Assembly: GCA_943354605.1 (NCBI GenBank)
Contig: CALRCK010000001.1
Location: forward strand, 148,936 to 212,935
Reading direction: 5' to 3'
Source of the DNA: Candidatus Uhrbacteria bacterium
GTDB lineage: Bacteria > Patescibacteriota > Patescibacteriia > UBA9934
Length of the DNA: 64,000 nucleotides
The notes below the pieces were generated by a model that made no database searches, was not told where the DNA came from, and saw nothing but the letters and a program-made list of their open reading frames with translations. This document shows, piece after piece, positions 19,123 to 48,865 of this stretch; position 1 is the first letter of the stretch; each line of letters opens with the position of its first letter. The position numbers and the translations under genes were made by a program.

Positions 19123-19223
19123 GAGCGTGCTCCTGGTTCGGTTTGCCTAACGCCGCCCCGGGATGGGAACGGTCGCGAAAGAGTGTCATACTTTTGAGGT
19201 TTCGTCAACGACAAAAACGTGTA

Positions 19224-19342
19224 GGGGTTTCTCATTTGTGACAATTTTCGGTGCGTATCAAGCAAATCTCGCGAGGCGTACTTTATGTGTACGTTGAGCG
19301 AGTTTGCGATGATGCAAGCCGAAAATTGGCCAAATGAGGAAG
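19224..19342 (-). mobile_element. ~120-bp MITE-like element with terminal inverted repeats (copy A, reverse orientation)
   Basis: Aligns end to end with the copies at 30424-30544 and 41096-41215. Its TIRs are 'cttcctcatttggccaattttcg' and 'cgaaaattgtcacaaatgagaaaccc'. Confidence 0.7.
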
Positions 19343-19447
19343 ACCGAACGAAAACCCCCAGGATCATCGATTTTCGATAACCCTGGGGGTCGGTCGAGGC
19401 GTTTCGTCGCCTCGACCCGTTGCGAGCCGCACTGGAACGTACCGAAC

Positions 19448-29687: not shown

Positions 29688-29735
29688 ACCGAAGCGAGGC
29701 GTACTTCATGTGTACGTTGAGCGAGGACCGGAGGC
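29688..29735 (-). repeat. Core-only degenerate copy of the MITE-like element (copy B)
   Basis: 'gcgaggcgtacttcatgtgtacgttgagcgag' matches the palindromic core of copies A/C/D but has no TIRs. Confidence 0.5.
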
Positions 29736-29770: not shown

Positions 29771-29847
29771 TGGGCTCATAGCTCAGTTGGTTAGAGCGCC
29801 GAGCTTATACCTCGGTGGTCCCTGGTTCGAGTCCAGGTGAGCCTACC
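29771..29847 (+). tRNA. tRNA-Ile (anticodon TAT/UAU), CCA encoded
   Basis: Manual fold: gggctca|ta|gctc|agttggtta|gagc|g|ccgag|cuUAUac|ctcgg|tggtc|cctgg-ttcgagt-ccagg|tgagcct|a|cca. Confidence 0.75.
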
Positions 29848-30020
29848 AGAATTCTATGTACTTCATTCCACCTCTTCTTCTTTTTCTCGGCGTGGTGTTT
29901 AGCATCATGGGCCGACAGCACCATAACCACGAATTTGTCGGGTTGGGGTATATTTTCTTTCTTGCAGCATTTGCTGCGGGGACCGTGTTGTTTCTTGCGC
30001 TCTCTGCGCTGTAGTAATTT

Positions 30021-30419
30021 ATGATGACGGCAAATCCTCATACCGCGGTGTTTTTTCTCTCCCTTTCGTGGTTTGTGATCTATTGGATTTTGGGAGGCGT
30101 GGTATTTGCGTTGATTGCGGCAGCAAACGCAATGCACATGCGGAAGGCCCGGTTTAGTTGTTTGTTTACGATCGGCGCCGCGGCCGCGGCACTTGGCGCC
30201 GCGTACACTGGTGTCGTGCTTTCTCGTCCGCAAGGGCTCCGATGTCCAGACGAACTCGTTTCTCGAGGGACGCTCCAGGGCGCGGAACATTTCAATATTC
30301 AATCGATCCTCGTGTGCGATTTCCGTGCCGTCCTCATCGCTGGTAGTTTGTTTTTCGGTCTCCTTCTTGCTGCCGGCATGGTGGCGATGCTTCTTTCCCG
30401 AACCGAAAAGCAGCGATAA
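30021..30419 (+). CDS. small membrane protein, hypothetical
   Basis: 132-aa ORF with three or four hydrophobic helices. Confidence 0.4.
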   Translation: MMTANPHTAVFFLSLSWFVIYWILGGVVFALIAAANAMHMRKARFSCLFTIGAAAAALGAAYTGVVLSRPQGLRCPDELVSRGTLQGAEHFNIQSILVCDFRAVLIAGSLFFGLLLAAGMVAMLLSRTEKQR

Positions 30420-30423
30420 GGAG

Positions 30424-30544
30424 GACTTTCTCATTTGGTCTATTTTCGACTCAGATCATCGGAAACTCGCTCAACGTACAGATGAAGTATGTCTCGCGAG
30501 CTTTCCTCGGTCTTCATCGAAACTAGACCAAATGAGAAAGTCCT
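30424..30544 (+). mobile_element. ~120-bp MITE-like element with ~27-bp terminal inverted repeats (copy C)
   Basis: 'ggactttctcatttggtctattttcga ... tcgaaactagaccaaatgagaaagtcc', with a palindromic core 'aaactcgctcaacgtacagatgaagtatgtctcgcgagcttt'. Starts 4 bp after the stop of the upstream ORF. Confidence 0.75.
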
Positions 30545-30573
30545 CGCATATTCAAGTATCGAGAAAACAAAAC

Positions 30574-30598
30574 ACCGTCCGCGATGGACGGTGTTTTG
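30574..30598 (-). terminator. bidirectional hairpin terminator (caccgtcc-gcgatg-gacggtg flanked by A/T runs) 3' of tRNA-Val(GAC)
   Basis: Seen directly as 'caaaacaccgtccgcgatggacggtgttttgtg'. Confidence 0.55.
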
Positions 30599-30675
30599 TG
30601 GTGCGCGCACGTGGACTCGAACCACGGACCTTCACAATGTCAATGTGACGCTCTAACCAACTGAGCTATGCGCGC
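30599..30675 (-). tRNA. tRNA-Val (anticodon GAC), CCA encoded
   Basis: The minus strand reads gcgcgca|ta|gctc|agttggtta|gagc|g|tcaca|uuGACau|tgtga|aggtc|cgtgg-ttcgagt-ccacg|tgcgcgc|a|cca. Confidence 0.8.
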
Positions 30676-39388: not shown

Positions 39389-41095
39389 ATGACCGCACGA
39401 AGTGTTGCACGGAAAGAGGTGTTTACCGCGCTCAAAAAGGCGTTGGGAAAAACATTCACCCTCACGGCGGACATGATTGTGTCGCCGCCAAAGCCGGGAT
39501 TCGGCGACTTGTGCTTTCCGTGTTTTACGTTGGCAAAGGGTATGAGTCGCAACCCGGCCGAGATCGCCACAGAACTTGCGGCAAAGATTGGGCCGTCGAA
39601 GATGATCAAGAAAATTACGTCCGCTGGGCCGTATGTGAACTTCACGTTTGACGACGAAGCGTTTGGTGCGCACGTGCTTGATGATGTCGCAAAGGCCAAG
39701 AAGCGATACGGTCGAGGCACCACAGGGAAGGGGAAGCGTGTGCTTGTAGAATACGCACAGCCAAATACACACAAAGAATTCCACGTTGGCCATTTGCGCA
39801 ACGCTATCTATGGTCAGTCGATCGTGAACCTTGTTTCGGCGAATGGATACGACACGATTGCTGCGGCGTATATTGGCGACATTGGGGCACACGTCGCAAA
39901 GGCGATTTGGGGATTCAAAAAGTTCTACGGCGAAGAGGCTGTTGCAAAGGAAAATCGCGCAAAGGTTCTTGGCGATGCGTACACGAAGGCGACACAATAT
40001 ATCGACGACCATCCAGACGCGAAGGAGGAGATTTCCGATATTCAACGAAAGCTCGAGGCTGAAGAGCAGCCTTGGCTTGGATTGTGGAAGGAAACGCGGG
40101 AGTGGAGTTTGGACGAGTTCCGAAAGGTGTTCGCCGAGCTCGGCGTGAAGCCGGGCGTATGGTACTTCGAAAGCGAAGTAGAGAAGCCGGGGAAAGAGCT
40201 TGTTCGGAAAATGCTGACCGATGGAATCGCAAAGAAGAGCGAGGGCGCGACGATTGTTGATCTTGCCGACGAAAATCTTGGTGTGTTCCTTGTATTAAAG
40301 ACCGATGGGTCGTCGTTGTACGCAACAAAAGATCTTGCGCTCGCGCTACAGAAAGATCGCGATTACGCCCCGGACCGGCAGATTTTTGTCATCGATGTGC
40401 GACAGTCGCTGTACATGAAGCAGCTGTTCGCAACATTGAAGCGCCTCGATTTCCATAAGGAGCTTGTGCATGTTGGCTACGAAATGGTGACATTGCCCGA
40501 TGGTGCGATGTCGTCGCGAAAGGGGAATATTGTTCGCTACGACGAGCTTCGCGATGCGATGTTCCAGACACTCGTGGATTCCACGAAGCTTCGTCATCCA
40601 GAATGGAAGGAAAAGGCGGTGAACACGAATGCGTTAACTCTTGCACTCGCGGCAATGAAATTCATGATGCTTCGCCAAGACCCGGGGAAAATTTTGGTCT
40701 TCGACATGGAAGAGGCCATGGCGACGGATGGATTCACGGGGCCGTATATTTTGTACACGATCGCTCGCATCAACAGTTTGCACGGAAAGACGAAGGTTTC
40801 CGCATTCCCGTTGGCATCGGCATTAACGGATCCCCAAGAGGTTCAGCTGTTGCGCAAAGTGTCGGAGTATCCCGACATTGTTGCACAGGCCGGAACGGAG
40901 ATGCGTCCATCGTTGGTGTGTTTGTACGCGTTTGAACTTGCGCAGATGTTCTCACGGTACTACGCCGAAGTGCACATGATTGACGAAGATCAACCATCGT
41001 TGACTGCCGCGAGACTCGGATTAGCGGATATTGTGAGCTCGACTTTAACGAACGCGATGGAGCTTCTGAATATTCAGGTTGTGAAGTCGATGTAG
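39389..41095 (+). CDS. argS: arginyl-tRNA synthetase
   Basis: 'EYAQPNTHKEFHVGHLRNAIYGQSI' and a C-terminal DALR-like anticodon-binding domain. Confidence 0.9.
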   Translation: MTARSVARKEVFTALKKALGKTFTLTADMIVSPPKPGFGDLCFPCFTLAKGMSRNPAEIATELAAKIGPSKMIKKITSAGPYVNFTFDDEAFGAHVLDDVAKAKKRYGRGTTGKGKRVLVEYAQPNTHKEFHVGHLRNAIYGQSIVNLVSANGYDTIAAAYIGDIGAHVAKAIWGFKKFYGEEAVAKENRAKVLGDAYTKATQYIDDHPDAKEEISDIQRKLEAEEQPWLGLWKETREWSLDEFRKVFAELGVKPGVWYFESEVEKPGKELVRKMLTDGIAKKSEGATIVDLADENLGVFLVLKTDGSSLYATKDLALALQKDRDYAPDRQIFVIDVRQSLYMKQLFATLKRLDFHKELVHVGYEMVTLPDGAMSSRKGNIVRYDELRDAMFQTLVDSTKLRHPEWKEKAVNTNALTLALAAMKFMMLRQDPGKILVFDMEEAMATDGFTGPYILYTIARINSLHGKTKVSAFPLASALTDPQEVQLLRKVSEYPDIVAQAGTEMRPSLVCLYAFELAQMFSRYYAEVHMIDEDQPSLTAARLGLADIVSSTLTNAMELLNIQVVKSM

Positions 41096-41215
41096 GACTT
41101 CCTCATTTGGTCTATTTTCGATTTGCGCCATCGCAAACTCGCTCAACGTACACATGAAGTACGTCTCGCGAGCTTTGCTCGTCGCGCATCGAAACTAGCC
41201 TCAAATGAGAAACTC
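41096..41215 (+). mobile_element. ~120-bp MITE-like element with TIRs (copy D)
   Basis: Begins at the base after the argS stop with 'ggacttcctcatttggtctattttcga ... tcgaaactagcctcaaatgagaaactcc'. The core is near-identical to copy C. Confidence 0.75.
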
Positions 41216-41256
41216 CTATAATCTAGCCTATAATCAGTTATTATCTTGAAATCTTT

Positions 41257-43823: not shown

Positions 43824-45446
43824 CTATTTGCGCGGATGGTGAAATGGTAGACACGCCAGCTTGAGGGGCTGGTGGCCGCAAGGTCGTGGAGGTTCGAGTC
43901 CTCTTCCGCGCACCAATACAGAACTCAACGGCTTTTTCAAAGCCAGAAGGTGGGACGCGCGAAGCGCGTCCCACTGATTTCCCCCCATTTTTCCAAACGA
44001 ATTTGGAGCACCGCCTTCGGCGGTGCGCACTGTTTTTTCGCCAAGAAGCAGGTTCGAGCCAAAGATTTCTTTGGCAACGACCTTTTTCGCAAAAGGGTTG
44101 CTATCCCGTGCGATTCTACTTAGATTTTGAGCGTCTTTTATCCACTCCTTCATCGGTTCGAGCCAATCATTTTGCTTTTGTAGAAGTGAAGATATTTTCT
44201 CTTCCAGCGACTTCTTTGTAAATAACAACTTTGATTTTTCAGCACGATATATTTCTTGTTCAATAACTTGGTCTAAATAGCCGTCAAGAAGTCGCTGGAG
44301 CTTCGCTTCAATATTTTTGATTTCTTTTTTCACTTCTTCTACAAAAGCAGAATTAGACTGGGCAGATTTTTTGTGGTCTTGCAGAGCAAGACGATTTAGT
44401 TCTTCCGCCCAGTCTGGTGGCAAAGAAACTGATTTGATAAGTGATGATAGCTGTTTGTCTAATTCCTCTTGGCGAATACAAGGTTCGGGACATTTTATAT
44501 TTTTGTTTTTCTTTGAACAATGGTAGTAAGTGTAATTATGCACATTTCCATTTTTCTGTTTCTTAACCTTGTATTCGCCAGTTATCATCATTCCGCATGA
44601 GGCGCAAGAAATTAGTCCACAAAAAGGTTGAGGTTCATTTTTAGATTTTCTGTCAGGTACACCGCGAAGTTTCAAAATTTCTTGCGCCTTATCAAACAGT
44701 TTCTTTGACACAATTGGCTCGTACTTTCCCTCATGGCGTTCACCGCCATATTTGAACAAACCGATGTAAAAAGGATTGGAAAGAATAAAAGACGCTCTAG
44801 TTTTGGAGATTATCTTTCCGCCTCTCGAAACGATTCCATTTTTCGCCAAAAAGTTTGAGATGTCTTCTAATCTACTTTCACCTTTCGCGTATTTCTCAAA
44901 AGCCAAGCGAATGACGCGAGATTTTTTCTTGTCCACTACGACAGATTTTGTGCGAGAGTCGTTGATATACCCCACTGGCGCTTGGCTTGGATAATCGCCA
45001 TTACGAACTTTTTGGCGAAGCCCTCGTTTCGTGTTTTCGGAAAGAGAATCTACATAGTATTTGCTTTGCCCAAAGGCGATGTTGAGCATAAATTTTCCTT
45101 GTGAAGTGTTTTCACACCAAAAAGTTGGAAATTTCAATATCGCCAAATGCCCGCAATCCAAAAGATAAATTATTCGTCCACCGTCCACAGAATTGCGCGC
45201 CAAGCGATCCGGATGCCAAGCAAGGATAGCATTTGCATCGCCGTTTTCAATACGCGAAATCATTTTATTAAACACTGGACGACCAGGAATTTTAGCCGAT
45301 TGTTTTTCAATCAATTCTTCGGCGATATGCAAACCCTCTTGCTTGGCATACGCGCGCAATTCGGTGAGTTGGGCGTCAATAGATAAAACCTGCTTGTCCT
45401 CAACATCGGTGGACTTGCGGGCATACAAAAAGAATTTTTGTTCCAT
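43824..45446 (-). CDS. large serine recombinase (resolvase/invertase N-domain + recombinase domain + zinc ribbon)
   Basis: 'FFLYARKSTDVEDKQVLSIDAQ' catalytic Ser region, 'LAWHPDRLARN', and 'CGLISCASCGMMI...YYHCSKK' Cys cluster. I chose the start at 'MEQKFF' (45446). The frame stays open through IR1-L and antisense across tRNA-Leu, so the natural C-terminus is uncertain. Confidence 0.75.
   Translation of the reverse strand: MEQKFFLYARKSTDVEDKQVLSIDAQLTELRAYAKQEGLHIAEELIEKQSAKIPGRPVFNKMISRIENGDANAILAWHPDRLARNSVDGGRIIYLLDCGHLAILKFPTFWCENTSQGKFMLNIAFGQSKYYVDSLSENTKRGLRQKVRNGDYPSQAPVGYINDSRTKSVVVDKKKSRVIRLAFEKYAKGESRLEDISNFLAKNGIVSRGGKIISKTRASFILSNPFYIGLFKYGGERHEGKYEPIVSKKLFDKAQEILKLRGVPDRKSKNEPQPFCGLISCASCGMMITGEYKVKKQKNGNVHNYTYYHCSKKNKNIKCPEPCIRQEELDKQLSSLIKSVSLPPDWAEELNRLALQDHKKSAQSNSAFVEEVKKEIKNIEAKLQRLLDGYLDQVIEQEIYRAEKSKLLFTKKSLEEKISSLLQKQNDWLEPMKEWIKDAQNLSRIARDSNPFAKKVVAKEIFGSNLLLGEKTVRTAEGGAPNSFGKMGGNQWDALRASHLLALKKPLSSVLVRGRGLEPPRPCGHQPLKLACLPFHHPRK
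43830..43915 (+). tRNA. tRNA-Leu (anticodon GAG), type II, CCA encoded. Its 3' end is the junction of an inserted element.
   Basis: gcgcgga|tg|gtg|aaatggtaga|cac|g|ccagc|uuGAGgg|gctgg|long variable arm|gaggttcgagtcctc|ttccgcgc|a|cca. Confidence 0.8.
43909..44057 (+). repeat. IR1-L: ~150-bp inverted repeat (left copy) containing three GC hairpins, including gcaccgcc-UUCG-ggcggtgc
   Basis: Nearly identical, in reverse complement, to 45514-45661. Confidence 0.8.
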
Positions 45447-45513
45447 AGAGGGATTATAGCAAAAATTCTTTTTGTTGGGCAAATCCTTTTTTGAATTTGT
45501 ATCGCACGGGATT

Positions 45514-45661
45514 TCGAACCTGCTTCTTGGCGAAAAAACAGTGCGCGTCGCCGAAGGCGACGCTCCGAATTCGTTTGGAAAAATGGGGGGAAATCAGTGG
45601 GACGCGCTTCGCGCGTCCCACCTTCTGGCTTTGAAAAAGCCGTTGAGTTCTGTATTGGTGC
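45514..45661 (-). repeat. IR1-R: inverted copy of IR1
   Basis: Reverse complement of 43909-44057, with one point difference plus two compensatory base-pair swaps in the UUCG hairpin. Confidence 0.8.
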
Positions 45662-45970
45662 CTTTACTATACCAAGTTAGAACCTATTTTCAAAATAAAA
45701 TATCATAGTGTTTCCCGCGCGCTAAAGCGCCACCACGCGAAGCGTGGTGCTTCTGCTGAAGCAGAAGTGCGGGAAAACGCTCTGCACTCCGCCACAATGT
45801 TTTGGGGGCAAAGGAGGCGGAGTGCAGAAATGCGGAACGCGAGCGAAATTTTGCGAAATGCTGGGGGTTTGGGGGAAAGTATTTCGCAAAATTCGCTTCG
45901 CGTGCTTCCTGATTTTTTGGCGACAGAATTGCGGGGTAAAATTGTTCAAATTCGGATTTTTTGATATAAT
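45656..45970 (+). repeat. IR2-L: ~313-bp perfect inverted repeat (left copy) ending in an inward-facing promoter
   Basis: Exact reverse-complement match to 48518-48830. Contains hairpins ccacgcg/cgcgtgg, cttctgc/gcagaag and ctgcactccgcc/ggcggagtgcag. Confidence 0.85.
45942..45970 (+). promoter_or_regulatory. sigma70-like promoter TTGTTC-N17-TATAAT driving the HD-hydrolase gene (inside IR2-L)
   Basis: Perfect -10 and a 17-nt spacer, with the ATG 13 nt downstream. Confidence 0.55.
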
Positions 45971-45982
45971 GTTTTTGATATT

Positions 45983-46576
45983 ATGAAGTTTACTATCAAA
46001 GTTATTAATGCGATTAGCCAAGCAGCGATTTGGCATAAAGACCAAGTTCGCAAGGACTTTGAAGAAACGCCTTATATTGCGCATCCATTTTCTGTAATGC
46101 TGACCCTTTTGGAATTTACAAATGATGAAGATGTTTTAATCGCTTCATTATTCCATGATGTTTTAGAAGATGTAAATCTAAAACTTGCTGAAATTATAGA
46201 AAAAGAATATGGCTCCAAGGTTATAAAAATTGTAAAAGCATTGAGCGAAGACAAAGATCCTGAAAAACAAACTGATGCCAAAGCCACATGGCGCTCGAGA
46301 AAATTAGGATATTTAGAACATCTTAAACTTGCTCCGAAGGAGGTCCTTTTGATAAGCTGTGCGGACAAGCTAGACAATTACCATACGCTTGCCAACACCA
46401 TCGAAAATTACGGCTTCAATATAGCATTAAAAAATTTTAATGCTCCGCTCAAAGATCAATTATGGTTTGCTGATGAAATAATAGAAATTTTCAAGAACCG
46501 TCTACATGGTCATCCACTGGTCAATCGTCTTTCGCAAATAATCAATCACATCAAAATCCTATCAAATACTCATTAA
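45983..46576 (+). CDS. small alarmone hydrolase (SpoT/RelA-like HD-domain (p)ppGpp hydrolase, SAH)
   Basis: 'PYIAHPFSV...LFHDVLEDV...VKALSEDKD...RKLGYLEHL...CADKLDNYHTL' parallels the RelA/SpoT HD hydrolase motifs (HPL.V, HDVVED, VTK, RKM, KLADRLHN). AT-rich codon usage. Confidence 0.65.
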   Translation: MKFTIKVINAISQAAIWHKDQVRKDFEETPYIAHPFSVMLTLLEFTNDEDVLIASLFHDVLEDVNLKLAEIIEKEYGSKVIKIVKALSEDKDPEKQTDAKATWRSRKLGYLEHLKLAPKEVLLISCADKLDNYHTLANTIENYGFNIALKNFNAPLKDQLWFADEIIEIFKNRLHGHPLVNRLSQIINHIKILSNTH

Positions 46577-46887
46577 TTAATTTCAGAATCTAATTTTTCT
46601 TTAGCCTTTGCAAAATCCACCATTGTTTTTTCCTCAGGCAAACTGCCATAATATAACCTTGTATATTCATCAATTATTTCTTGGCCTTCGCTTCCGTTTA
46701 GATCTTTCCCTTGTATGTCTTGGCGCCAATAAAGCTCAACAAATTTTTGATAATCAAACGGTTCCTTATTGTAAGGATTTTCATTAATTAACTTATCCAA
46801 GCTCGCTTTTTTTTCTTCTCTAATTTTCTTATAAATCATATTCTGGTCTTCTGGGGATATAAAGTTTGTTTTTTCATTCATAGACAT
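46573..46887 (-). CDS. hypothetical protein (last gene of the zeta-like operon)
   Basis: 104-aa Lys/Glu-rich ORF in AT-rich cargo. Confidence 0.35.
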   Translation of the reverse strand: MSMNEKTNFISPEDQNMIYKKIREEKKASLDKLINENPYNKEPFDYQKFVELYWRQDIQGKDLNGSEGQEIIDEYTRLYYGSLPEEKTMVDFAKAKEKLDSEIN

Positions 46888-46916
46888 AATTAGTATTCTT
46901 AAATTTAATTATAATA

Positions 46917-48332
46917 TTATTGCGCTTTACTATCAAGAGCCACGCCGATAGTTTTACCTAAATATTGTCGTAAAGTTTCTGCTGTTTTTTCTGCAAATTG
47001 TTGTGATTTTTCATCGAAATATGTCGCTGTAAAATTTTGTATGTATTCTTCTGTGATTACAGTATTGTTGATCCTTTCTATCTCTTCTTCCGGTTCTTCA
47101 ATTGATTGGCCGGCTAAATTCTCTCTACCCTCAATAATTCTAACTTTTCCAGCTTCTTCATCCCACACGGCGACTTCAACGGATTGTCTTAATTCCTTGT
47201 CATAAGCCATTAAAACATATCCATTGACTAACTGCGGATTATCATCTAAAGATTTATGTTGGACCTCACGATTTCCTCTAATCCCTCGAAATCCCTGCGC
47301 CACACCATCAAAGGCTATGTTTGGATCGGCGCCTCCCTTTTCACGTTCCAAAACTCTTACAGCGGAAAGCTCGAGCGGAACATCAATATCCATAATTGCA
47401 ATCTTACGGCCAGTTTCCTTAGCACTTTCAATCATTTCTTCTATGTCCGCATGCTCATTCATTAATTTATCGAAAACTACCGATGTATCTGCGCTAGATA
47501 CTTCTTTTTTAACAGCTCTTCCCAACATGGTACTTTCAGCATGAACTTGAGTAGACGATAAATTGCCTTTTTCTTTGAGCGGTCCCTTGAAAACATCTGG
47601 CGCCAATGAGCCGCTTGGTTGTCCTTTTTCATCTAAAATGCCTTTAAACATCTCATGCCCCCTGCGAAGAGCGGTTGTTTTACCTGCCCCGGGAGATCCG
47701 CGTAAAGCAAAAATTGTTGGGGGAGGAATTCTAGGGTTTTCTCTTTCGAGCCTCCTAGATAAATCCAAGGCCTGTTGAGTGTTTTCTCTTTTCAATCGTT
47801 CGTGTAATGACCGTCTACCATCCCAATTTTCAGGATTATCGTAGATTGTGCTTCTTTCTTTCTTAGACAATCCTGTCGTATCAACAAGGCAAAAAACCTT
47901 AGATGTATCTATATTTGGGTCTCTTGATAATAATTCAATGTTTTTATCATAACCTTCTTCACTTCTATGGCCTTCTTGGCTTGATGTAGGTTCTCCCGCG
48001 TCCGTTATTTCTCTAATTTTCCCCACTTCTTCGCCTGCAAGTTGCGTAGCTTCTGTTTGTATTTCATTCAGTTTTCCATCAAGCCCTTGTTCCTGCCGAA
48101 CGGCTGATAACATATCGGGAGATACACTCATGCTTTGAGATGATAACTCAATTCTCTGTTGCGCTTCCGGCAAAACATTGGCTGTTTGTTCAGCAATATT
48201 TTTTTCGGCGGAAACAGCGAATTGTTCTACCTGTTTGTTGCTGACCTCCGCCTCAACGGCTTCTTCCGGTGACCTGATTTCTGTTTCTGCTGTTTCTATT
48301 TTAGCTTGGGGTGAAAAACGTTCTGTTTTCAT
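46917..48332 (-). CDS. zeta-toxin-family P-loop kinase with long acidic N-terminal extension
   Basis: 'PTIFALRGSPGAGKTTAL' Walker A, followed by 'LAPDVFKGPL' (zeta/PezT-like Asp region) and 'IAIMDIDVPLELS'. The N-terminal ~190 aa are acidic and low-complexity. Confidence 0.55.
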   Translation of the reverse strand: MKTERFSPQAKIETAETEIRSPEEAVEAEVSNKQVEQFAVSAEKNIAEQTANVLPEAQQRIELSSQSMSVSPDMLSAVRQEQGLDGKLNEIQTEATQLAGEEVGKIREITDAGEPTSSQEGHRSEEGYDKNIELLSRDPNIDTSKVFCLVDTTGLSKKERSTIYDNPENWDGRRSLHERLKRENTQQALDLSRRLERENPRIPPPTIFALRGSPGAGKTTALRRGHEMFKGILDEKGQPSGSLAPDVFKGPLKEKGNLSSTQVHAESTMLGRAVKKEVSSADTSVVFDKLMNEHADIEEMIESAKETGRKIAIMDIDVPLELSAVRVLEREKGGADPNIAFDGVAQGFRGIRGNREVQHKSLDDNPQLVNGYVLMAYDKELRQSVEVAVWDEEAGKVRIIEGRENLAGQSIEEPEEEIERINNTVITEEYIQNFTATYFDEKSQQFAEKTAETLRQYLGKTIGVALDSKAQ

Positions 48333-48499
48333 AGTTGCTTTAATGATTTTCTAAGCTCGTCCAATTTTTTCTCTTTGAGCGTGTCTAAAAAATCGGCGAC
48401 GATATCATCGCGCTTTTTCTTAAGCACGGAAAATTTGGCTGCAAATTCCGTCACTATTTTCTCAATTTCTTTTTTCTTTTGTAAATTTTTATTGGTCAT
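48329..48499 (-). CDS. 56-aa helical ORF translationally coupled (ATGA overlap) to the zeta-like kinase; candidate epsilon-like antitoxin
   Basis: Not in the supplied ORF track (<60 aa). Translated by hand it reads 'MTNKNLQKKKEIEKIVTEFAAKFSVLKKKRDDIVADFLDTLKEKKLDELRKSLKQL*'. Its stop overlaps the kinase ATG. Confidence 0.35.
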   Translation of the reverse strand: MTNKNLQKKKEIEKIVTEFAAKFSVLKKKRDDIVADFLDTLKEKKLDELRKSLKQL

Positions 48500-48517
48500 A
48501 TTCTATATATTGAGTCT

Positions 48518-48830
48518 ATTATATCAAAAAATCCGAATTTGAACAATTTTACCCCGCAATTCTGTCGCCAAAAAATCAGGAAGCACGCGAAGCGAATTTT
48601 GCGAAATACTTTCCCCCAAACCCCCAGCATTTCGCAAAATTTCGCTCGCGTTCCGCATTTCTGCACTCCGCCTCCTTTGCCCCCAAAACATTGTGGCGGA
48701 GTGCAGAGCGTTTTCCCGCACTTCTGCTTCAGCAGAAGCACCACGCTTCGCGTGGTGGCGCTTTAGCGCGCGGGAAACACTATGATATTTTATTTTGAAA
48801 ATAGGTTCTAACTTGGTATAGTAAAGGCAC
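48518..48830 (-). repeat. IR2-R: inverted copy of IR2 carrying the mirror promoter (ATTATA...GAACAA on the plus strand at 48518-48546) reading leftwards
   Basis: Exact reverse complement of 45656-45970. Confidence 0.85.
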
Positions 48831-48835
48831 CATCG

Positions 48836-48865
48836 AAAACGAAGCCTGACCGGGCTTCGTTTTTG
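48836..48865. terminator. bidirectional hairpin terminator just outside IR2-R
   Basis: 'aaaacgaagcc-tgaccg-ggcttcgtttt' flanked by A-run and T-run. Confidence 0.5.

Follow-up and report, generated by a model that had tools for sequence, protein, structure and literature searches.

Why does a perfect inverted repeat enclose two convergent gene units in a genome of Candidatus Uhrbacteria bacterium, with the same promoter-like sequence facing inward from each arm? We analysed a stretch of 64,000 nucleotides (nt) of contig CALRCK010000001.1 (the window), in which the arms of this repeat (IR2), at 45656-45970 and 48518-48832, bracket the gene of a small alarmone hydrolase (SAH) and, facing it, an operon with a toxin-like kinase. 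The original prediction, made from the letters alone, took the repeat for a device that supplies both units with one strong promoter and thereby holds them at equal strength. Our results point to a larger structure. The repeat appears to be part of an integrative element of 4917 base pairs (bp; 43916-48832), driven by a large serine recombinase and inserted at the 3′ end of a tRNA-Leu(gag) gene, whose attachment region is duplicated in inversion. We put the probability of this reading at about three in four.

Anatomy of the element at tRNA-Leu

The two arms of IR2, which lie 2547 nt apart, are complementary at 315 of 315 positions; the repeat is as perfect as was claimed, and its length is 315 rather than 313 nt. 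A second inverted repeat (IR1, 43910-44057 and 45514-45661; 148 nt including the core defined here, 97% identical) brackets a recombinase gene. IR1 and IR2 overlap by 6 nt, TGGTGC (45656-45661), the reverse complement of GCACCA, which is found at the 3′ end of tRNA-Leu (43910-43915) and again at the end of the right arm (48827-48832). We designated this hexamer the core, and the arms counted without it as X (142 nt) and Y (309 nt). The region then reads tRNA-Leu, core, X, recombinase gene (minus strand), inverted X, inverted core, Y, cargo, inverted Y, core, and terminator. Because the core is common to both repeats, 45514-45970 reads as an intact, inverted attP-like site of 457 bp (Y arm, core, and X arm) that lies in the middle of the element. 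The second 457-bp copy is split into attL (43910-44057; tRNA and X) and attR (48518-48832; Y and host DNA). The three junctions in the window (tRNA to X, Y to X, and Y to terminator, each across GCACCA) form the pattern that would be expected for attL, attR, and an intact inverted attP. IR1 and IR2, which had been treated as separate repeats, are the X-arm pair and the Y-arm pair, and therefore constitute one attachment region in two inverted copies. No other copy of X or Y was found in the window.

The target gene, tRNA-Leu(gag) (43830-43915, plus strand), was identified by ARAGORN, Rfam, and the junction comparison, and its 3′ GCACCA forms the left core. X copy 1 (43916-44057, plus strand), on the attL side, is one arm of the inverted repeat, is conserved across the family described below, and contains the hairpin GTGGGACGCGCGAAGCGCGTCCCAC. 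X copy 2 (45514-45655, minus strand) was delimited by the inverted-repeat comparison and belongs to the intact internal copy. The central core (45656-45661), where the repeats overlap, has GCACCA on the minus strand, and the same junction logic holds in 13 relatives. The family-conserved part of Y was delimited at 45662-45922 in IR2-L (copy 1, plus strand) by alignment with the Y arm of a relative, locus L031, together with folds and a promoter scan, and at 48566-48826 in IR2-R (copy 2, minus strand, attR side) by the repeat comparison and the L031 match. The right core (48827-48832, plus strand) ends the island according to the junction comparison.

The GC content is 51-52% in the flanks, 40% in the recombinase arc, 37% in the cargo arc, and 46% in Y, and the host level resumes to the right of the right core. 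The description of IR2 as GC-rich thus holds relative to the cargo but not to the host flanks. Two bases past the right core, where the GC content changes, starts an intrinsic terminator (48834-48865, plus strand; a 14-pair stem and a T-run in the terminator scan) that serves no other client. It is presumably the original tRNA-Leu terminator, moved 4.9 kb away by the insertion. The predicted empty junction between tRNA-Leu and this terminator reads GAGTCCTCTTCCGCGCACCATCGAAAACGAAG.

The recombinase (540 residues; 43824-45446, minus strand, with its ATG at 45446) has the Pfam domains Resolvase (PF00239), Recombinase (PF07508), and Zn_ribbon_recom (PF13408), all above their cut-offs, and the catalytic-serine motif in its N-terminus, YARKST. 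The nearest curated NCBIfam families are Ccr and XisF-like. It is a 100% match to a 540-residue database protein and has thousands of relatives with at least 70% identity which, where they are named at all, are proteins of Patescibacteria. There is no DDE transposase in the element, in which the search gave a weak partial match to IS607 only. An insertion sequence or composite transposon was also considered and set aside; the outer ends, X on the left and Y on the right, do not form an inverted pair. A search of a viral collection gave no relative of the recombinase, which fits a non-phage element.

The recombinase open reading frame (ORF) has no stop of its own. The antisense strand of X encodes the C-terminal tail, and the frame passes through X, crosses the core, and enters antisense tRNA-Leu (43824-44057). 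Because the ORF crosses the attachment site, the last ~30 residues are set by DNA beyond the core; in the un-integrated configuration, the protein would end ...PLLYQVRTYFQNKIS. The lengths of related recombinases, which vary from 515 to 600 residues, are in line with an ORF that crosses the site. Promoter and motif scans place a promoter-like sequence, TTGCCC-N18-TGcTATAAT, at 45453-45482 on the minus strand. Its -10 box ends 6 nt before the ATG, and the mRNA is therefore predicted to be leaderless.

We propose that integration took place via the attachment copy downstream of the recombinase gene, which would now be split into attL (tRNA, core, and X) and attR (Y, core, and the old terminator). 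The two inverted attachment copies separate a recombinase arc from a cargo arc.

The interior of the arms suggests how these arcs may be insulated. Alignment of the Y arms of the family reveals three zones: a conserved outer 45 nt (TGGTGnnTTTAT..ACCAAGTTAGAACCTATTTT), a set of variable hairpins, and an innermost long hairpin. The outer 45 nt are taken as the putative recombinase half-site. Y copy 1 has a GGTTC motif in this region and a hairpin cluster at 45707-45827; in the junctions of 13 loci, the distance between GGTTC and CACC is 24 nt in the Y arm and 20 nt in the tRNA genes, where GGTTC belongs to the T-loop. The long hairpin of Y copy 1 (45837-45903, loop GGGGGTTTGGGGGAAAG) is followed by a T-run at 45913-45918. 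Its stem varies by subfamily (AUUUUGCG.../GGGCGGGC...). In single-sequence folds, the hairpin always shows an unpaired purine loop of 15-25 nt with GGGGG-N3-GGGGGAAAG, and TTTTTTGG follows in most members. RNAalifold found no consensus structure for this hairpin across subfamilies from the sequence-based alignment, and covariation was argued by eye only. A loop of this kind, seen in the hairpin of the window (45849-45891, mirrored at 48597-48639) and in the Y arms of L020, L028, L044, L046, L060, L064, and L070, is unusual for a plain terminator. As a whole, IR2 folds with -129 kcal/mol (z = -7.0 against shuffled sequence) into four to five hairpins rather than the three first described.

X holds two conserved hairpins, the second with a T-run. 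In X copy 1, which now sits 3′ of tRNA-Leu, the terminator-like hairpin and its T-run occupy 44008-44026, and of the five positions at which the X copies of the window differ, four are compensatory changes that preserve the terminator-like stem. The terminator-like elements of X and Y both point away from the core. Counted from the core, Y would thus present the recombinase half-site, the conserved hairpins, and a terminator-like hairpin with its T-run towards the cargo, and the terminator-like hairpins of X would point at the recombinase gene. In this way, both arcs would be shielded from read-through from the tRNA gene, from the host flank, and from each other, which is a plausible reason for having the attachment region on both sides.

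An Rfam search over the island (gathering thresholds and E ≤ 1) returned only tRNAs and a sub-threshold match of the X arm (43947-44034) to NmsRb, with 30 bits against a cut-off of 52 and an E value of 0.07, which was taken as chance. Within the presumed half-site we also noticed an outward promoter-like sequence, TTGAAA-16-TGgTATAGT (45666-45693 on the minus strand and 48795-48822 on the plus strand), which would start transcription at about the core; the right-end copy would fire into the old tRNA terminator. This sequence is kept in one Y subfamily and is absent in L046, L053, L060, and L070.

Relatives of the element and possible exchange at the core

To place the element in its family, 80 genome loci with related recombinases were compared; L-numbers denote individual loci. 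Self-comparison showed the double repeat in 13 complete and 3 partial loci, in which the X pair around the recombinase abuts the Y pair around a cargo of 1.4-5.2 kb. Upstream and downstream of the recombinase gene, respectively, 35 of the 80 loci have Y and a tRNA gene, as in the window; 22 have a contig end and a tRNA gene, 3 a tRNA gene on both sides, 3 a tRNA gene and a contig end, 1 Y on both sides, and 1 a contig end and Y, and the remaining 15 have other surroundings. Most contigs stop in X just upstream of the recombinase gene, in line with the tendency of such repeats to interrupt short-read assembly.

The tRNA gene is always met precisely at its 3′ end, and the targets include tRNAs for at least ten amino acids (Arg, Val, Gly, Leu, Met, Ile, Glu, Lys, Tyr, and Phe), with Ser in addition in L085. 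The junctions of the 13 loci share the logic of attL (tRNA to X), attP (Y to X), and attR (Y to host), with CAC as the minimal core. In L052 and L053, tRNA-Val and tRNA-Ala, members of a single tRNA cluster, stand on either side of the island. L085, at its tRNA-Ser gene, has a recombinase with only 41% identity and the same layout (an X pair of 120 nt and a Y pair of 405 nt, 100% identical) around the same cassette as in the window, which implies that the architecture is older than the subfamily of the window. L032 has junctions of Y and X on both sides of the recombinase gene, and L042 has Y after the downstream X and a contig end upstream. Y on both sides is the appearance that would be expected of an un-integrated form; circularity of L032 and L042 is not demonstrable.

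This recurrence bears on whether the structure could be an inverted chimera or a collapsed repeat produced by metagenome assembly. The contig is of metagenome type, the arms of IR2 are perfectly identical, repeats of this kind are hard for short-read assemblers, and many contigs end in X. However, dozens of independent assemblies, made in different studies and by different assemblers, show the same architecture with other sequences and with arcs that are unique, and the junctions are precise at the tRNA end. We consider the chance of an artefact to be negligible.

An invertible switch is another conceivable explanation, in which the serine recombinase would flip the 2.5-kb cargo, its own gene, or both, as Hin, Gin, and Cin do. 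The arrangement is what such a switch would look like, with a serine recombinase gene between inverted repeats and the presumed site of the enzyme in opposite orientations; assemblies very often break at the repeat, and the same cassette has the opposite orientation relative to the tRNA gene in L091 and L085 compared with the window, albeit on different backbones. Inversion would nevertheless leave all connections unchanged, because each arc takes its promoters along and has the same sequence on either flank. A shared cargo-side motif stands beside the distal arm in all five relatives that have the motif, and the orientation of the recombinase gene is strongly biased: the tRNA gene lies 3′ of it in 57 loci and 5′ of it in 6. 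Moreover, the enzyme is a large serine recombinase of the integrase or transposase type and not a small invertase, and the outer junctions are a tRNA end and a tRNA terminator, which indicate insertion. A switch thus seems very improbable.

The cargo shows no protein in common among the 13 relatives, and no conserved cargo gene, such as one for a replication protein or a directionality factor, was found among them. Elsewhere in the family, the cargo includes LemA, a SocA/Panacea antitoxin, NYN, Vsr, a methyltransferase with a Vut_1 transporter, a permease, a tRNA synthetase fragment, and a pilin. Several genomes hold two or more elements of differing X/Y subtypes at different tRNA genes (L009/L051, L046/L052, and L050/L072; see also L024, 5756-5778). 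A full-text literature search found no description of such elements.

Comparison of individual elements uncovered a mosaic. Relative to L031, the window has 77.5% identity in X, 74% in the recombinase arc, and 95% in Y. Relative to L001, X is 94% and the recombinase arc 92% identical, and Y is unrelated beyond the outer half-site. The jump in identity lies exactly at the core, so that X and the recombinase arc have one history and Y and the cargo another. In L007, L023, and L073, precise junctions of tRNA, CCA, and X occur on both sides of the recombinase gene, at two different tRNA genes, and their X arms are 88-89% alike or of different subtypes; these units may be a trace of recombination between tRNA genes. 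L030, L041, and L061 were grouped with them. Two further loci, L091 and L094, are recombinase-less remnants. The order in L094 (1980-2150) is Y arm, core, a palindrome of X with 20 nt, and tRNA-Leu(taa), and in L091 (906-1110), tRNA-Arg and 45 nt of X are joined directly to inner Y and the AvrRxo1 cassette discussed below.

Such loci might be taken to mean that the window contains two independent adjacent elements with the same target, one with X ends around the recombinase gene alone and another, non-autonomous, with Y ends around the cargo. Recombinase units with X only and tRNA ends on both sides do exist (L007, L023, and L073), as does Y-flanked cargo without a recombinase gene (L091, L093, and L081), and the two arcs differ in history. 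On the other hand, a conservative serine recombinase cannot excise a segment between inverted sites, both supposed ends share a single core, X abuts Y in at least 35 loci, and the recombinase-less copies look like deletion remnants (45 nt of X in L091 and the 20-nt X palindrome in L094). We therefore give two separate elements little credence and retain the single element with a duplicated attachment region.

Each arc of this single element is bounded by two inverted cores, and whole modules (Y-cargo-Y or X-recombinase-X) could therefore be swapped at the core. This raises the possibility that the inverted second copy is functional, in which case each integrated element would retain a live attP-like site, and the family would act as a natural cassette-exchange platform and as a driver of rearrangement between tRNA genes in the small Patescibacteria genomes. 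The jump in identity at the core, the hypervariable cargo, and the two-tRNA recombinase units all fit this idea, which we put forward tentatively and with the odds somewhat against it. The mosaic, the two-tRNA units, the remnant loci, and L032 and L042 fit a still-active internal site and also homologous exchange between resident elements, which the data do not separate.

The cargo cassette and its twin promoter-like sites

The gene content given in the original prediction, an SAH opposite an operon of a 56-residue ORF, a zeta-like kinase, and a 104-residue ORF, was confirmed and could be sharpened. The SAH (197 residues; 45983-46576, plus strand) has the size (~180-200 residues) and the RelA/SpoT-type HD hydrolase domain (HD_4, PF13328) of this class and no synthetase domain. 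It is a single-domain protein, its TIGR00691 match covers the hydrolase region only, and among solved structures it matches 7qoc (E = 3e-24) and MESH1 (E = 1e-9). The operon on the minus strand opens with the 56-residue ORF (48329-48499; taken from the ORF list), the stop of which overlaps the kinase start (ATGA). The kinase, a putative toxin of 471 residues (46917-48332), matches Pfam Zeta_toxin/AAA_33, the NCBIfam family XopAJ/AvrRxo1 (NF041405, E = 1.9e-60; 205 bits, below the curated cut-off of 300), and PDB entry 4z8q_A (E = 9e-30, residues 164-466). The last ORF (104 residues; 46573-46887) has AvrRxo1-ORF2 (4z8q_B) as its best PDB match, which is full length but weak (E = 0.057). By position, size, and this match it is probably an Arc1-like partner of the kinase; an ORF of ~102-119 residues occupies the same position in all relatives.

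AvrRxo1 phosphorylates NAD to 3′-NADP (PMC5087710, PMC5491322) and forms a toxin-antitoxin pair with the small downstream Arc1; AvrRxo1 homologues with a short downstream ORF have already been noted in Parcubacteria (PMC4938570). We hypothesize that the SAH removes the 3′-phosphate that the kinase adds to NAD. A link of AvrRxo1 to an alarmone hydrolase was not found in a full-text literature search, and PADLOC gave no defence-system match for the four cargo proteins.

The stops of the SAH gene and the 104-residue ORF overlap by 4 nt, tail to tail. This arrangement leaves no room for a terminator, so that both units must transcribe into each other. The convergent cassette of four genes is conserved down to 71% kinase identity; the 56-residue ORF has 51-56 residues in relatives with at least 71% identity and is absent from distant homologues. 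At 38-50% identity, homologues still have the kinase with its downstream ORF but neither the hydrolase nor the 56-residue ORF, which identifies the hydrolase as an addition to an already complete pair of kinase and ORF. Among these distant homologues, the kinases of L095-L099 stand in ordinary chromosomal contexts, once inside a ribosomal protein cluster, with a downstream ORF of 113-119 residues and neither a hydrolase nor a recombinase gene.

The promoter-like motif described for the inner end of each arm is present and exactly mirrored. On the plus strand, TTGTTC (45942-45947) is followed, after a 17-nt spacer, by TATAAT (45965-45970), and a TG at -15/-14 completes an extended -10 sequence, TGATATAAT. 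The mirrored site at 48518-48546 has its -10 box at 48518-48523 and its -35 box at 48541-48546. Measured against the sigma-70 consensus, the -10 box matches at six of six positions with its upstream TG, and the -35 box at three of six relative to TTGACA; because of this poor -35 match, the consensus scan did not list the site. The strength ascribed to the promoter would hence rest on the extended -10, which is perfect. The identity of the arms stops exactly at TATAAT, beyond which one side reads GTTTTT and the other AGACTC. Since the sequences part right after the -10 box, the initial transcripts and translation starts differ, and equal strength cannot be deduced from such a pair.

The motif TGNTATAAT occurs three times in the window, against 0.65 expected, and all three occurrences are inside the element: at 45453-45461 upstream of the recombinase gene, at 45962-45970 upstream of the SAH gene, and at 48518-48526 upstream of the 56-residue ORF. 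The gap between the -10 box and the ATG is 6, 12, and 18 nt, respectively, with the latter two start codons at 45983 and 48499. An alternative operon promoter in the scan list, TTGATA-16-TAGAAT (48527-48500), abuts the ATG and was set aside.

A Cys-rich ORF had also been described in both copies of IR2. It is there (80 and 82 residues), and its stop overlaps the downstream ATG (ATGA) in both; it is, however, probably spurious. It has no Pfam match, a stop interrupts it in the relative with 87% identity (L081), and its similarity to relatives merely tracks the DNA similarity. Repeats as rich in hairpins as these are open in every one of the three frames, over 35-126 codons, and the ORF would sit upstream of the proposed transcription start.

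How much of IR2 belongs to the cassette can be read from comparison with L031. The Y arm of the window is 95% identical to that of L031 up to 45922 and unrelated beyond this point, and the cargo of L031 is entirely different. The hairpin and T-run (...TTTTTTGGCGGGC) mark the end of the repeat, or nearly so, in the 13 complete relatives, and promoter-like TGnTAnAAT boxes lie in unique cargo DNA just inside the repeat. It follows that the last 48 nt (45923-45970) are not family DNA. On these alignments, the inner 48 nt of IR2 are assigned to this cargo cassette and the outer 267 nt to the family. In IR2-L, the cassette-specific 48 nt (45923-45970, plus strand) hold the SAH promoter-like site (-35 at 45942-45947, TG and -10 at 45962-45970); in IR2-R (48518-48565, minus strand), they face the operon of the 56-residue ORF, kinase, and 104-residue ORF.

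The SAH-side motif is conserved in L081, L090, L093, L091, and L082. The toxin side is more variable. The twin promoter-like site is present there in L090 (94% kinase identity), in L081 (87%), where just 43 nt of repeat are left, and in L093 (86%), where one copy reads TATGAT. The observation that the same promoter-like sequence precedes both opposing units stands, and the twin has been inherited. The toxin-side promoter is deleted in L091 (80%), and is a different one in L082-L084 (77%) and L092 (71%); in L085-L089 (72%), the toxin side opens with a gene for a helix-turn-helix (HTH) regulator. This gene, which encodes an Xre-type HTH protein of 66 residues, stands before the 56-residue ORF in L085 (6622-6822) and in L086-L088; it is missing in the lineage of the window, where the duplicated hydrolase promoter stands in its place. 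Because the more distant copies of the cassette have another toxin-side promoter or the HTH gene, the twin looks derived, and as far as the sequences tell, the putative twin promoter is a heritable, lineage-specific secondary feature of one subclade.

In the cargo lineage of the window, the repeat would have grown inward by 48 nt, copying the SAH promoter over the control region of the toxin operon. Gene conversion between the arms most likely produced this extension. The arms stay 93-100% identical within elements that have otherwise diverged, which makes gene conversion the obvious mechanism for a shift of the boundary. As a result, the AvrRxo1-like toxin operon and the convergent SAH gene would start from the same extended -10 promoter.

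These data also allow us to weigh the proposal that the repeat exists in order to place an identical promoter before two opposing units, fixing the ratio of SAH to toxin or exposing both to a shared regulator. It can draw on the identical TGATATAAT sites at both inner ends, on their retention in L090, L093, and L081 although the latter lacks the long repeat on one side, on the conserved convergent unit of SAH and toxin operon with overlapping stops and no terminator between them, and on the apparent replacement of the HTH-regulated version (L085) by the twin promoter. Most of the repeat tells another story. Of the 315 nt, 267 are family DNA that elsewhere surrounds unrelated cargo; the original prediction had named copies of IR2 elsewhere, without the adjacent genes, as a sign of a co-opted repeat element, and such copies do occur, next to other genes, so that most of IR2 is mobile-element DNA. 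Moreover, neither L091 (80%) nor any sampled relative at 71-77% has the twin on its toxin side. The two sides differ in sequence from +1 on, so that equal output cannot be concluded. The toxin probably has a partner of its own, the Arc1-like ORF in cis, and distant homologues are entirely without SAH. We regard a repeat made for promoter delivery as unlikely, and prefer to see IR2 as the Y arms of the integrative element with a short cassette-derived extension.

The other repeats in the window are unrelated to X or Y. A palindromic repeat of ~125 nt occurs at 19222-19345, 30421-30545, and 41094-41218, with a fragment at 29694-29725; its copies are 79-85% alike, two lie near tRNA-Ile and tRNA-Val (29772-30675), and it looks like a host repeat of the miniature inverted-repeat transposable element or repetitive extragenic palindromic type.

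The element among known systems

Several observations weigh against the view of 43916-48832 as an integrative element of this kind. The empty-site pattern for tRNA-Leu was not found in metagenome contigs, no copy was demonstrably circular, and the sole metagenome match to the junction is a recombinase-less remnant. The lack of relatives in the viral collection counts here only insofar as no free form was seen, and no directionality factor was identified in the element. The second, intact, inverted attachment copy contrasts with the single attP of canonical large-serine-recombinase elements. With two copies of equal activity, either integration isomer would be expected to be common, whereas the observed bias is 57 to 6. 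Exchange of modules exactly at the core is not predicted by rules that allow only attP x attB. The terminator role of the large-loop hairpin would follow from the conserved T-run only, and the -35 box of the promoter-like sites, with three of six matches, is poor.

The element represents a very abundant family of small gene-carrying elements in Patescibacteria, with thousands of recombinases at 70% identity or more. If it is what we propose, its serine recombinase would recognise a generic tRNA 3′ end, which may be of interest for the design of integration tools. The architecture with two inverted sites may explain how accessory cassettes (toxin-antitoxin, restriction-related, transporter, and pilin genes) are shuffled in reduced genomes, and it would explain why many Patescibacteria assemblies break beside tRNA genes. 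In the cargo, the conserved association of an AvrRxo1-type NAD kinase and an SAH suggests an enzymatic antidote, and the twin promoter would be a natural case of one sequence driving two opposing, overlapping units.

The cargo proteins have well-described counterparts. The SAH is a single-domain HD_4 hydrolase like the solved SAHs, including MESH1. The kinase aligns with AvrRxo1-ORF1 over ~300 residues and, like AvrRxo1, is followed by an ORF of ~100 residues in the place of arc1, with a weak best match to ORF2 (Triplett et al. 2016, PMC4938570; Schuebel et al. 2016, PMC5087710; Shidore et al. 2017, PMC5491322). The subclade of the window adds the upstream 56-residue ORF and the convergent SAH gene, which are absent at 38-50% identity.

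Insertion at a tRNA 3′ end with the tRNA left intact is shared with tRNA-targeting islands and with pTN3, the integrase of which inverts chromosomes between tRNA genes (Cossu et al. 2017, PMC5495485). The two-tRNA units L007, L023, and L073 are the residue that would be expected of a comparable integrase-mediated exchange between tRNA genes. Those systems, however, use tyrosine recombinases, long segments of identity, and one tRNA each, whereas the family of the window has a serine recombinase, a core of 3-6 nt, and many tRNAs.

With Hin, Gin, and Cin, the element shares a serine recombinase gene beside a segment bounded by site-bearing inverted repeats. Those systems, in contrast, rely on small invertases, an enhancer with Fis, and 26-bp sites, and they switch expression; inversion in the window element would be silent, and its outer junctions are insertion junctions.

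The nearest architectural analogue, with no implication of family membership, is the yeast 2-micron plasmid, in which FLP and FRT work within inverted repeats of 599 bp that separate two unique arcs, with the recombinase gene in one of them. Its enzyme is a tyrosine recombinase, the plasmid is eukaryotic and non-integrating, and its repeats serve to amplify copy number, whereas the window element has no identified replication gene or origin and shows no evidence of flipping. The nearest engineered analogue is MiMIC with recombinase-mediated cassette exchange, in which a cassette is bounded by two inverted phiC31 attP sites. The natural core-swap mosaic has the pattern that such an exchange would give, although the engineered system is man-made and uses attP x attB pairs.

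By enzyme and junctions, the element would belong with the large-serine-recombinase integrative elements. Like phiC31, Bxb1, A118, the Ccr enzymes of SCCmec, TnpX of Tn4451, and TndX of Tn5397, it has a recombinase with Resolvase, Recombinase, and zinc-ribbon domains, a short shared junction core without a long target duplication, and element arms unlike those of the target. As in the window element, a promoter-like sequence lies across the joint from the recombinase gene in Tn4451. Compared with its place in the tRNA, GGTTC is shifted away from the core by 4 nt in the element arm, which resembles the placement of the zinc-ribbon motif, which reportedly lies ~5 bp further out in attP than in attB; we take this likeness as a lead only. 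The element differs in that it targets the 3′ ends of tRNAs for at least ten amino acids rather than one site, that its recombinase ORF crosses the site, and that its cargo is tiny, hypervariable, and interchangeable. Its inverted duplicate also keeps a whole attP-like site after integration. Because this intact inverted second copy is present here and in at least 35 relatives, in place of a single attP, we file the element as a variant of the large-serine-recombinase class.

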